A stretch of DNA of 64,000 nucleotides from positions 544,001 through 608,000 of the forward strand of contig CBDCUI010000007.1 of NCBI GenBank assembly GCA_965222615.1. Reading direction: 5' to 3'. This DNA comes from Gammaproteobacteria bacterium. GTDB lineage: Bacteria; Pseudomonadota; Gammaproteobacteria; UBA4575. Position numbers and translations under genes: made by a program. Shown here in pieces: positions 20,024 to 62,138 of this stretch. Positions within the stretch are counted from its first letter, which is position 1. Every line of letters starts with the position of its first letter. The notes under the pieces were generated by a model. That model was not told the origin of the DNA. It was given only the letters and a program-made list of their open reading frames with translations, and searched no databases.

Positions 20024-21436
20024 TTACGATTGAAACAACCCCAACTCTTGAATCTTTCTGGTTAAGGTATTTCTGCCCCAACCTAAAAGTTTAGCGGCTT
20101 CTTGGCGTTTGCCTCCCGTCTTGCGCATGGCTGCTTTGATCATCACTGCTTCAAACAAAGGGGTTGCTCGATCCAGAATACCGTCCTCACCTTTAGACAA
20201 CTCATGTTCTGCCCATTCATTTAATAAACTTTGCCAATCCGATGTTTCTTCAGTAGACATCTCGTCTTTAAGCATTTCTGCTGGCAAGTCTTGCATGCGA
20301 ATTTCATTACTGGATGCCATTACTGTTAACCAACGGCATACATTTTCTAACTGGCGAACGTTGCCTGGCCATTCTAATGCACTTAGATACTCTACAACTT
20401 CTGCAGTGAGTTTTTTTGGCTCTGCCGCTAACTCCTGTGCAGAACTTTTCATAAAGTGTTTTAACAGAATAGGAATATCTTCTTTACGTTCACTCAAAGT
20501 AGGCAGGTGAATTCGAATTACGTTTAGACGATGAAATAAATCTTCACGAAATTTTCCACTTTTAACCCTTGCTTCCAAATTTTGATGTGTAGCCGCAATA
20601 ATGCGCACATCGGCCTTGATCGGCTCATGCCCACCCACACGATAAAAATGTCCATCCGACAACACACGTAGTAAACGTGTTTGTAAATCTGCAGGCATAT
20701 CTCCAATTTCATCTAAAAATAATGTGCCTTGATGGGCTTGTTCAAAGCGCCCCTTGCGCTGCGTCTGTGCTCCTGTAAATGCGCCTTTTTCATGCCCGAA
20801 CAATTCGGATTCTAATAAGTCACGAGGAATCGCCGCCATATTCAATGCAATAAATGGTCCTTGGGCACATGGGCTGTGTTCATGCAGTGCCTGTGCGACT
20901 AGTTCTTTTCCCGTTCCTGATGCACCATTGATAAGTACTGTGATATTTGAATTCGATAATCTGCCAATGGCACGAAACACTTCTTGCATGGCAGGCGATT
21001 CACCAATGATTTTTGGTAGCTCTTGAGTAAGTACATTGTCTGTTTCGGTACTTTTGGCTTCGCTCTCATCGGCAGCCAAGCAAGCCCGCTTGGTGAGTTC
21101 CACGGCTTCATCTACATCAAATGGTTTTGGCAAATATTCAAACGCACCTTTTTGATAAGCGCCGACTGCACTTTGTAAATCAGAGTGCGCAGTCATAATA
21201 ATAATGGGTAAGCTTGGGTAATCTGTTTTAATACGATCAAGAAATTCTAATCCATCGATACCCGGCATACGCACATCGGTAAGAATTGCCGATGGTGTTT
21301 GTTGTTCTAATTCACGTATCGCGATACTAGCGGATTCAAAAGTAGTAACCGGTATTTCTGCTTTTTGAAACGCGCGCTCTAAGACCCAGCGCATCGCTTG
21401 ATCATCATCTATTACCCAAACATTCGTACAATTCAT
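20024..21436 (-). CDS. ntrC: nitrogen regulation response regulator NtrC
   Basis: REC domain, GASGTGKE, GAFTGA, WPGNVRQLEN, HTH LGWGRNTLTRK. Confidence 0.97.
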   Translation of the reverse strand: MNCTNVWVIDDDQAMRWVLERAFQKAEIPVTTFESASIAIRELEQQTPSAILTDVRMPGIDGLEFLDRIKTDYPSLPIIIMTAHSDLQSAVGAYQKGAFEYLPKPFDVDEAVELTKRACLAADESEAKSTETDNVLTQELPKIIGESPAMQEVFRAIGRLSNSNITVLINGASGTGKELVAQALHEHSPCAQGPFIALNMAAIPRDLLESELFGHEKGAFTGAQTQRKGRFEQAHQGTLFLDEIGDMPADLQTRLLRVLSDGHFYRVGGHEPIKADVRIIAATHQNLEARVKSGKFREDLFHRLNVIRIHLPTLSERKEDIPILLKHFMKSSAQELAAEPKKLTAEVVEYLSALEWPGNVRQLENVCRWLTVMASSNEIRMQDLPAEMLKDEMSTEETSDWQSLLNEWAEHELSKGEDGILDRATPLFEAVMIKAAMRKTGGKRQEAAKLLGWGRNTLTRKIQELGLFQS

Positions 21437-23579: not shown

Positions 23580-24989
23580 TTAGCAGCTGTAGTACATATC
23601 AAACTCAATCGGATGGGTAGACATGCGTAAGGCAGTGACTTCATCCATCTTTAAATCGATATAGCCATCAATGCAGTCATCTGAGAATACACCACCAGCT
23701 TTAAGAAAGTCGCGATCGTTATCCAGTGCTTCCAATGCTTGATCGAGTGAAGCACAAACCGTTGGAATTTTTGCTTCTTCTTCAGGCGGCAGATCATACA
23801 GATCTTTGTCAATTGCTGGGCCTGGATCAATCTGATTTTGAATCCCATCTAACCCCGCCATTAACATCGCAGCAAACGTCAGGTATGGATTGCCCGTAGG
23901 ATCACCAAAACGAACCTCGATCCTGCGTCCTTTTGGATTACTCTCATAGGGAATACGAATGGATGCCGAGCGATTGCGCGCAGAATATGCCAGCATTACC
24001 GGCGCTTCAAAACCTGGAACCAGTCGTTTGTAGCTATTGGTACTAGCATTAGAGAATGCATTGATTGCACGCGCATGTTTAATAATGCCGCCGATATAAA
24101 ACATGGCCGTTTGCGAAAGATTACCGTATAGGTCCCCTGCAAATAAATTATCACCATCTTTGACTAAAGACTGATGTACATGCATGCCACTGCCATTGTC
24201 ACCAACGATAGGTTTGGGCATAAACGTAGCGGTTTTACCATAGTTGTGCGCAACATTGAGTACGACATATTTTAAAATTTGGTTCCAGTCTGCACGCTTA
24301 GTCAGGGTGTTATAAAGAGTACCAATTTCGCATTGTCCGGCTGTGCCCACCTCGTGGTGATGTACCTCAACTGTCACACCCATTTCTTCTAATACCTGGC
24401 ACATGGCCGAACGCAAATCTTGTAATGAATCCACTGGAGGCACTGGAAAATAACCGCCTTTAACGCCTGGGCGATGTCCAATATTGCCTTCTTCAAATCC
24501 CTTGTTTGAATTCCAAGCCGATTCATCCGAGTCAATGGCATAGGAAGCACTGGACATTTCATTCAACCATTTGATGTCGTCAAACACGAAAAACTCAGGC
24601 TCAGGGCCAAAGTTAGCGGTGTCGGCAATGCCTGTTGAGCGCAAATAGGCCTCAGCCCGTTTTGCTACCGAACGAGGGTCACGACCGTAACCTTCCATAG
24701 TAGAAGGTTCAAGAATATCGCAGCGTAGAATGAGTGTGGGGTCACTGAAAAACGGATCTATTACCGCCGTGCTTGGATCCGGCATTAATATCATGTCGGA
24801 CTCATTAATTCCTTTCCAACCTGCAATAGAAGAGCCATCAAACATTTTGCCTTTTTCAAAAATATCCTCTTCGATGACTGTAGCAGGTACAGAGACATGT
24901 TGTTCTTTACCTCGTGTATCAGTAAATCGAAAATCAACGAATTTAACATCGTTGTCACTCATCATCTTCATTACATCGCTCGCGGACAT
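23580..24989 (-). CDS. glnA: glutamine synthetase type I
   Basis: [27 protein letters not shown], adenylylation site [10 protein letters not shown]. Confidence 0.99.
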
Positions 24990-25073: not shown

Positions 25074-25212
25074 AGCACATTACGTGCCAGTAACATTGGA
25101 TGCACTTTATTGAGGCCAGGGCGGCATTATACGCGGCTTGCAGGCGATAGAAAGATCAATAAAGTAGGTTATTTGCACCAGGATAGTGCTTTATAAGCAC
25201 CAGAACAGTGCT
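25074..25212 (-). promoter_or_regulatory. glnA sigma54 promoter with two NtrC boxes
   Basis: Minus TGGCACGTAATGTGCT (25089-25074); TGCACCAGGATAGTGCT (25174-25190); AGCACCAGAACAGTGCT (25196-25212). Confidence 0.85.
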
Positions 25213-25566
25213 TGTTGTTTGGAATTATTCTGCAGCTCTATAACACAAACGCCAAACTTACACGTTGAGCTTTAGTGAACAATGGAACCCTTGTTCATGG
25301 ATTTTTCCTACACCTCGACTTAGTCAAACATCGAGGACATAAACGCAAATCAATACAAGACTGGAGCATTAACTGCTGAAGAAATTGAACTTAAAAAAGT
25401 AGATATACATCACATCGGCAATGCCGAAATTTGTCACCAAAGGCCAAATTCTGGGGACAAAATTGGTCCAATTTGCGACTAAGGGTGTTTGTTAGCAAAT
25501 GCTAATACACACTTAACCTACCCTATGTCAGTAAGTTAATTACACTACTTCAAGTCGCCAAAAAGC

Positions 25567-25582
25567 TGGCATAGCCCTTGCT
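25567..25582 (+). promoter_or_regulatory. sigma54 -24/-12 promoter
   Basis: TGGCATAGCCCTTGCT (GG-N10-GC), immediately before the GGA-rich tract. Confidence 0.75.
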
Positions 25583-25592
25583 CAAATAGCTA

Positions 25593-26030
25593 GTAATAGG
25601 GACGTTTTTATTTGCCAGGGATTGGCGAAACTATTTTAGACAAGGAGGTCAACATGGTCGGCAACACGGACGTACTCACAACATTATATGTTGTATGGAT
25701 CGCCGCTAGTGTAGCAGCGCTGGCTTGGGCCTATCGCGACACAGTGAAACAAAAACTTTGTGGCGTAAAAAAAGGCGCTTAAACACTAACAAGGATTCAT
25801 GGTGATAAGTGTTGAGCTTATCACGATGTGTAAGGATACGGACTTGTATGCAAGTGATACGGATATCTACTTTGCAAATCAAGTCACCATATTTAAGGAA
25901 TTTGCTAATGGTATGGATACCATGGCAAGCAAGGAAGCAACTGAATAGCTCATGCATCAGGAGAGCTTTTTACTTTAAGTCTTAGGGATGAGAGCTGCGT
26001 GACAGGGACGTCAACTCGCAGCTTCTTCAT
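25593..26030 (+). ncRNA. CsrB/Rsm-like CsrA-sequestering RNA
   Basis: About 15 GGA motifs, mostly ANGGA and many in short stem-loops (GCCAGGGATTGGC, GACAAGGAGGTC, GATACGGATATC, ATGGTATGGATACCAT, TGACAGGGACGTCA); 3' end uncertain. Confidence 0.75.
25654..25782 (+). CDS. 42-aa single-TM small protein inside the CsrB-like RNA
   Basis: RBS AAGGAGGT (25642-25649); MVGNTDVLTTLYVVWIAASVAALAWAYRDTVKQKLCGVKKGA; hydrophobic span followed by a basic tail. Confidence 0.6.
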   Translation: MVGNTDVLTTLYVVWIAASVAALAWAYRDTVKQKLCGVKKGA

Positions 26031-26114
26031 TCAAACTTCAATATATTCATTCATATGCTGGTCGCAGGACGGACGCATCGCTATACTCACGCTGCGTCAT
26101 TTGCCAGCAAAGAC

Positions 26115-62045: not shown

Positions 62046-62138
62046 CTATCTGGCAATCCCGCTGTCTTAGAATCCTTGCTTCCGTAGACCGGTAATTTTG
62101 CGCCCCTATCTTTCAATAGGTTTGCCTTTTTTCAGTAG
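62046..62138 (-). ncRNA. c-di-GMP-I (GEMM) riboswitch
   Basis: GGCAAACCTATT-GAAA-GATAGGGGCGCAAAATTACCGGTCTAC..GACAGCGGGATTGCCAG; P2 GNRA loop, P3 receptor region, G20 present. Confidence 0.88.

Follow-up and report, generated by a model that had tools for sequence, protein, structure and literature searches.

RNA sponges of the CsrA/RsmA type, such as CsrB, CsrC, RsmY and RsmZ, are treated as textbook examples of purely non-coding RNAs that titrate a protein. Titration of CsrA by a protein-coding transcript is known from the leader of the Salmonella fim mRNA; that transcript, a long mRNA of an operon whose leader has a few sites, is not a CsrB-like multi-hairpin RNA with an embedded small ORF. 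Protein-sequestering decoy RNAs can also be driven by an enhancer-binding protein together with sigma-54, as is the case for CrcZ (with CbrB, for Hfq-Crc) and GlmY (with GlrR, for RapZ), which differ from the RNA described below in having other protein targets, A-rich motifs or mimicry of GlmZ, and no ORF. Known dual-function RNAs, which include SgrS/SgrT, Spot 42/SpfP, AzuCR, SR1/SR1P and RNAIII, combine riboregulation and a small protein on one short transcript, and regulate by base-pairing; the sgrT ORF is missing from some SgrS homologues, a feature that recurs here.

Nitrogen limitation, through NtrBC and sigma-54, is the input of NrsZ from Pseudomonas aeruginosa and of GlnZ, from the glnA 3' UTR, both linked to a gln/ntr neighbourhood as is our RNA; the two act by base-pairing, and neither is described as coding. 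Of two recent overviews, a review of 2025 mentions CsrA-binding sRNAs only as a possible place for small ORFs, and a perspective of 2023 counts decoy/small-mRNA, next to the combinations already established, as one of the dual-function types that might still come to light. Both treat coding CsrA-binding sRNAs as yet to be found, in agreement with the first-pass annotation of this locus, which was aware of no protein-coding CsrB. Our own literature search, in which subscription journals were thinly covered, found no CsrA sponge that is coding or driven by sigma-54.

Here we describe an RNA encoded between glnA and glyQ in a gammaproteobacterial genome which, judged from its sequence, looks like a CsrA sponge. 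It resembles CsrB, CsrC, RsmY and RsmZ in its many GGA motifs within short-hairpin loops, its GGA-bearing terminal hairpin, its size within the CsrB range and its presence in a CsrA-encoding genome. It differs from this non-coding class in that it carries a selected, conserved 42-codon ORF, is preceded by a sigma-54 promoter where that class has a sigma-70 promoter and a GacA/UvrY box, and matches no Rfam family. Like the dual-function RNAs, it would join riboregulation and a small protein on one short transcript, but it would titrate a protein where they base-pair. Our preferred model, which we regard as reasonably probable, is that of a sigma-54/NtrC-driven RNA of ~440 nt that would serve both as a CsrA sponge and as the mRNA for a membrane peptide. 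A coding CsrA sponge is a combination not described before.

The window, by which we mean the whole stretch of 64,000 nucleotides that was analysed, carries the RNA and its ORF in a 1.1-kb gap between glnA and glyQ, in the following surroundings:

Downstream of glnA, minus strand: a DUF4124 gene, a gene for an NtrB-like kinase, and ntrC at 20027-21436
23580-24989, minus strand: glnA, with its ATG at 24989
25654..25782, plus strand: ORF encoding a 42-aa membrane peptide of a single helix, intact over 42 codons, with the ATG at 25654 and the stop codon ending at 25782
26115 (likely start), plus strand: glyQ, followed by glyS

The adjacency of glnA and glyQ is kept throughout the family, and the hosts of the public relatives are uncultured gammaproteobacterial genome bins. 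One of the 16 public records with the peptide gene (L039) is titled as an uncultured Mycobacterium bin, the others being gammaproteobacterial; this title is probably a binning or labelling error. Elsewhere in the window, the Rfam scan recovered a full-length c-di-GMP-I riboswitch aptamer (RF01051, 76.8 bits) at 62049-62136 on the minus strand.

The ORF, which the first-pass annotation had proposed, holds up among relatives: it is present, and under purifying selection, in 20/20 genomes with the ORF-bearing form of the RNA. The outcome which that annotation had named as a refutation, an RNA conserved without its ORF, was thus not obtained for this form. A profile search with the peptide (MVGNTDVLTTLYVVWIAASVAALAWAYRDTVKQKLCGVKKGA) gave matches in 20 of the 56 family genomes, which belong to five genera (all genomes of g1, g2, g6 and g9, plus 15/15 of g7), and no match in g3 (0/13), g8 (0/16), g4, g5, g10 or g11. 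All 20 copies are intact at 39-43 aa with the ATG at the same position, and GGAGGTC lies 5' of this ATG in 19/20 loci. The median Nei-Gojobori dN/dS of the 20 copies, taken over the 166 pairs with finite dS > 0.05, is 0.137. A longer ORF starting at TTG 25612 (56 aa) was dropped; its in-frame upstream extension is not conserved.

Direct reading of the peptide bore out the hydrophobic span and basic tail reported earlier, with the span at approximately residues 7-27 and five K/R in the tail. AlphaFold2 modelled a single helix comprising residues 2-41 (pLDDT 79.8), and the peptide is predicted to be located in the inner membrane with N-out/C-in topology. Searches of the peptide against Pfam returned 0 families and those against NCBIfam nothing meaningful; nine near relatives were found, all unnamed, and a sequence-cluster search of 1.84 billion representatives yielded three clusters, all of the same family as the peptide. 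In the ESM Atlas, the best look-alike scored 0.84, with none above, and all were unnamed. Judged by these searches, the peptide falls outside any known small membrane protein family.

One could argue that the ORF is not translated and that its conservation derives from RNA structure alone. Two GGA motifs do lie within the ORF in the genome under study, and RNAalifold pairs the ORF segment TGGATC with GGATTCA past the stop codon. This helix, however, shows almost no covariation, with both sides changed in 1/7 pairs and in two sequences. Moreover, variable columns at codon positions 1, 2 and 3 number 21, 13 and 33 of 37 gap-free codons, respectively, a pattern opposed to constraint on RNA structure alone, and between genera synonymous sites are saturated while the peptides are still 63-95% identical. 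Frame, ATG and Shine-Dalgarno are all kept in 20/20 loci. Lastly, the ACGGAC motif inside the ORF is not conserved (the wobble base of the Thr codon varies) but the residues T-D that it encodes are, indicating that constraint acts on the protein. We thus hold the untranslated alternative to be extremely unlikely and conclude, on comparative grounds, that the ORF is a real gene.

The first-pass annotation had placed the peptide gene inside a CsrB-like RNA, and the comparative evidence, namely selection on the ORF and the GGA hairpins around it, is in agreement with this placement. GGA hairpins are found on both sides of the ORF, and a covariance model of the 3' domain (R1) matches exactly the 20 ORF genomes, once each, among the 56 family genomes. 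A scan of the interval between the ORF and the GGA array identified no sigma-70-like promoter and no terminator-like site. By these comparisons ORF and array form one unit, and we infer a single transcript of ~440 nt that starts near 25593 and ends near 26030; counted between the predicted start and the final hairpin, the RNAs of the 20 loci are 437 to 517 nt long.

A different arrangement would be that of two uncoupled RNAs, in which an internal start or processing separates the mRNA from a 3'-UTR-derived sponge sRNA. Small RNAs derived from 3' UTRs are common, GlnZ from glnA being an example, and a stable 8-bp hairpin without GGA that follows the ORF (25801-25825) could mark a processing site. 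The interval between ORF and array nevertheless offers neither a promoter-like nor a terminator-like site, the GGA hairpins flank the ORF on either side, and processing would still leave one gene with two products; we consider this arrangement improbable, and continue with the single transcript, whose structural features are:

25611..25629, plus strand: 5' UTR hairpin UUUGCCA-GGGAU-UGGCGAA, with GGA in the loop, from the fold
25639..25650, plus strand: Shine-Dalgarno hairpin GAC-AAGGAG-GTC (GACAAGGAGGTC), with the Shine-Dalgarno AAGGAGGT at 25642-25649
25783..25992, plus strand: GGA array, with the first motif 10 nt past the stop codon
25856-25867, 25908-25923, 25929-25938 and 25947-25967, plus strand: GGA-loop hairpins included in the array, from folds
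25993..26032, plus strand: terminal nested hairpin AGCTGCG-(GAC-AGGGAC-GTC)-CGCAGCT with a U-rich tail, the likely 3' end

The second of these features had been described previously as a Shine-Dalgarno sequence within the loop of the hairpin GAC-AAGGAG-GTC with an ATG 4 nt further on, and direct inspection found it exactly so. The Shine-Dalgarno and terminal hairpins have the same form, GACA-N-GGA-N-GTC, and the 12-mer GACANGGANGTC occurs four times in the genome, two of them within this RNA. In the minimum-energy fold of 25593-25662, the GGA of the first hairpin and the Shine-Dalgarno are both located in hairpin loops. The fold of the 70-nt 5' part is no more stable than those of shuffled sequences (z = -0.54); the two 3' parts fold more stably than shuffles (z = -2.86 and -2.87), and the whole RNA gives z = -4.0.

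Among relatives, the 5' UTR hairpin has altered stem letters (GCTCAGGATGAGC and others) and is without GGA in 2/20 loci. All 20 loci present 8-13 GGA 3' of the ORF (10 in the genome under study), with 0-2 TCC in the 19 complete loci, and in most of them the first GGA past the ORF is 9-10 nt from the stop codon. The terminal nested hairpin is the most conserved part of the RNA; in the genome under study its U tract is weak and the terminator scan made no call there; a strong intrinsic terminator, distinct from this last GGA hairpin, lies 3' of it in genus g7. In several hairpins, stems change between clades while GGA loops are kept (for instance TGGTA/TACCA, TAACT/AGTTA and ACTC/GAGT), and RNAalifold detected two-sided changes in 7/55 pairs. 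RNAalifold on the whole 609-column alignment was set aside, with its weak consensus, a covariation term of -1.8 and a poorly aligned middle; conservation was judged per hairpin and on the 3' domain alignment.

The RNAs of the 20 loci carry 13-17 GGA each versus 0-2 TCC, and in that of the genome under study 13 of these motifs lie outside the ORF, mostly within short-hairpin loops. Between 25598 and 26073, ANGGA occurs 15 times on the plus strand and 0 times on the minus strand, with ~1.2 expected from the window background (331 per 128,000 strand-positions). Outside the ORF, 154/258 GGA (60%) are found in loops closed by stems of at least 4 bp, and with shuffled flanks 35% are already in loops of 4-bp hairpins, so that the enrichment is less than twofold; with stems of at least 5 bp the values are 36% versus 15%. 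This locus is also the densest 350-nt segment for ANGGA in the whole 3.1-Mb genome (12 motifs). The runner-up (11), considered as a second sponge candidate, was rejected, as it lies inside the coding gene of a 455-aa protein, and so were the remaining GGA clusters of the genome, which correspond to 16S rRNA, tRNAs, a rubredoxin-like ORF and the csrA leader.

In the csrA leader (L015; C8:997346-997500, upstream of csrA), some of the clustered GGA stand beside the start codon, which would fit CsrA autoregulation. We also observed a non-coding stretch on the minus strand at C9:80100-80750, with nine GGA in 160 nt and without a long open frame.

CsrA is encoded by one gene in this genome and was found in 34/36 family genomes. 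Its SELEX optimum is close to GACA-A/G-GGA-N-GUC, and several hairpins of the RNA take this form. Together with the strong asymmetry between GGA and TCC on the strand, and with the presence of CsrA in the genome, this speaks against the possibility that the GGA hairpins bind a partner other than CsrA, or are purely structural, in which case the RNA would be no CsrA sponge at all. That possibility draws on the fact that no known RNA family matches: the Rfam CsrB/CsrC/Rsm models gave no match to the RNA, neither at the gathering threshold nor at E values up to 10, and none to the ORF-less relatives discussed below at E values up to 0.1. We judge it to be very improbable, and retain CsrA as the likely ligand.

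The 5' region of the RNA suggests in addition that CsrA could control the ORF. In CsrA-repressed mRNAs, one GGA overlaps the Shine-Dalgarno and a second site is placed within reach of the CsrA dimer. This is the layout observed here, with a GGA inside the Shine-Dalgarno hairpin and a second GGA hairpin 25 nt upstream. Since the ribosome-binding site is itself a CsrA-type hairpin with such a neighbour, CsrA would be expected to block translation, and gating of peptide synthesis by CsrA, which the first-pass annotation had proposed in the form of translation only at low levels of free CsrA, is plausible.

The promoter region, which is considered next, comprises the following elements:

25075..25089, minus strand: sigma-54-like promoter of glnA, TGGCACGTAATGTGC, 85 nt before the glnA ATG
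25175..25211, no strand assigned: two NtrC-type dyads (GCACCAGGATAGTGC and GCACCAGAACAGTGC), 392 and 370 nt 5' of the -24 box of the RNA
25429..25473, plus strand: upstream element ATTTGTCACC...GGACAAAATTGGTCC, which starts 133-135 nt 5' of the -24 box in 20/20 loci
25524..25538, plus strand: IHF-like box TATGTCAGTAAGTTA (in relatives aTCAgTaagTTA), conserved in upstream alignments
25567..25582, plus strand: sigma-54 promoter TGGCATAGCCCTTGCT, with the -24 GG at 25568-69, the -12 GC at 25580-81 and a predicted start at ~25593

The promoter reads TGGCAT-N5-TTGCT, and TGGCAY-N5-TTGCT is found in 20/20 ORF-bearing loci, with 66-81 nt between the -12 GC and the ATG. A strict sigma-54 pattern has just 13 matches in 6.2 million genome positions, several of which are by flagellar regulators, and rpoN is present in this genome and in 52/56 family genomes. 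GacA/UvrY boxes are of the type TGTAAG-N6-CTTACA. A palindrome at 25492-25505 (TTAGCAAATGCTAA), considered as a GacA/LetA-type box, was dropped, as it is not conserved in relatives, and no GacA/UvrY orthologue over the cut-off was found in the genome (best score 177.8 bits, versus a cut-off of 280). As read from the sequence, the promoter is of the sigma-54 type and not of the GacA/UvrY type; the first-pass annotation had not noted this promoter class, with its NtrC-type sites nearby and no GacA/UvrY box.

At least one GCAC-N7-GTGC dyad was present in 6/7 loci examined, 280-390 nt 5' of the -24 box, and the dyads are placed between the divergent glnA and RNA promoters. By the enteric consensus, we read them as putative NtrC sites. 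The two divergent sigma-54 promoters of this intergenic region may share one enhancer. Six enhancer-binding proteins are encoded in the genome under study, of which NtrC alone passes its curated cut-off. NtrC is the sole canonical enhancer-binding protein in G015, a 100% complete genome with the ORF-less RNA, where it is encoded 4.5 kb from the RNA, and likewise the sole canonical activator in G073 (83% complete). The sigma-54 promoter, the nearby dyads and the standing of NtrC in G015 and G073 lead us to assign the RNA to the response to nitrogen limitation, a reading to which we give about an even chance and which leans mainly on these two genomes, one complete and one 83% complete; dependence on NtrC is here inferred.

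The 45-nt upstream element is unique, in that a genome scan returned only itself, and it is partly common to the ORF-less loci. As it is not an NtrC dyad, a second factor is taken to be involved. The IHF-like box is so named by its resemblance to the IHF consensus. A 503-aa enhancer-binding protein (C9:112186) was considered as a regulator candidate and rejected: the family, its own genus included, contains no orthologue of it, the best match being 43% identical. A strict sigma-54 box directly follows the gene of this protein, and is itself followed by a gene starting MANIMWLQGGACSGN, which looks like that of a hydrogenase small subunit; C9:112186-114200 may be a recently acquired module.

A sister clade has a form of the RNA which the first-pass annotation did not include. 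In 12/16 g8 genomes and in the single g11 genome (1/1), the glnA-glyQ gap harbours a different, GGA-rich RNA without the ORF, of 176-286 nt, with 6-12 GGA and 0-2 TCC. It is preceded by a sigma-54 box in 12/13 loci, and the promoter-region profile built from the 20 ORF-bearing loci aligns to 10/13 of them (E < 1e-3), covering the upstream element, the IHF-like box and the -24/-12 boxes. Within the RNA, the terminal nested hairpin (GACANGGANGTC) alone aligns the two forms, weakly, and beyond the promoter and this last hairpin they have little sequence in common. The ORF-less RNAs contain no shared ORF with a ribosome-binding site, and none with a conserved Shine-Dalgarno. A short frame that recurs in them (MKSVKTWMS...) was discarded as a by-product, as it falls within the conserved terminal hairpin and has no spacing to a GGA. 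The thirteenth ORF-less locus (G023, of g8; L088/L100) is a decayed copy with changes in several GGA and without a sigma-54 box; it retains the upstream element and the terminal hairpin.

In a tree of GlnA and GlyQ, calculated without an outgroup and with L018, which has no glyQ, left out, the ORF-less loci fall on one side of a branch with 100/100 support and the ORF-bearing loci on the other. Three genomes, two of g3 and one of g4, possess the pair of genes without an RNA of this kind; they nest among the ORF-bearing loci (support 96/80 and 98/84), indicating at least one loss of the element.

The two forms bear on the explanation that the transcript is an ordinary small-protein mRNA under heavy CsrA control, with the GGA tail as a long 3' UTR that would affect stability or local recruitment of CsrA in cis, and any titration of CsrA incidental. 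The ORF is indeed the part best conserved between genera, far genera matching mainly query positions 100-261; the Shine-Dalgarno within a hairpin and the upstream GGA constitute the classic anatomy of a CsrA-repressed mRNA, and no CsrB family matches. Nevertheless, the sister clade keeps a GGA-rich RNA at this site, downstream of a homologous promoter, which suggests that the array can work without any ORF and argues for a role of the RNA independent of the ORF. Moreover, 10 GGA sites 3' of the stop codon are far more than CsrA-regulated mRNAs are known to carry, and no other strong GGA cluster outside coding sequence, and hence no other sponge candidate, was identified in the genome. An ordinary mRNA is thus an unlikely explanation, in our view.

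According to the sponge-plus-mRNA model, a sigma-54 promoter with NtrC as its likely activator would drive the RNA under nitrogen limitation, from NtrC sites that also serve the divergent promoter of glnA. Through its 13 GGA motifs outside the ORF, the RNA would bind the single CsrA of the cell and titrate it, as sponges of the CsrB/RsmZ type do, and it would double as mRNA for the 42-aa inner-membrane peptide. CsrA bound to the Shine-Dalgarno hairpin and to the hairpin 25 nt upstream would block the ribosome, so that most of the peptide would come from copies of the RNA not occupied by CsrA.

A bolder version of this model is that of a self-reporting sponge: NtrC would induce an RNA that titrates CsrA, only excess copies would be translated, and the peptide would commit the cell at the membrane. 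The peptide would then be a thresholded output signalling that CsrA is fully titrated, could act on, for example, a nitrogen-response transporter or sensor, and would couple nitrogen status to the carbon-storage (Csr) network. The ORF may, in this version, have been born inside an ancestral non-coding sponge, which would make it a gene that originated within an sRNA. We offer this version as a speculative one, with a low probability of being correct.

If the Shine-Dalgarno is indeed a CsrA site, the RNA would have a built-in threshold, with protein output only once the regulator is saturated. The occurrence of ORF-bearing and ORF-less forms at the same locus in sister clades makes this family a natural comparison for the gain and loss of coding capacity in sRNAs. 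For the organisms themselves, control by sigma-54 and NtrC, and not by GacA/UvrY, would link the Csr network to nitrogen instead of carboxylate or carbon signals.
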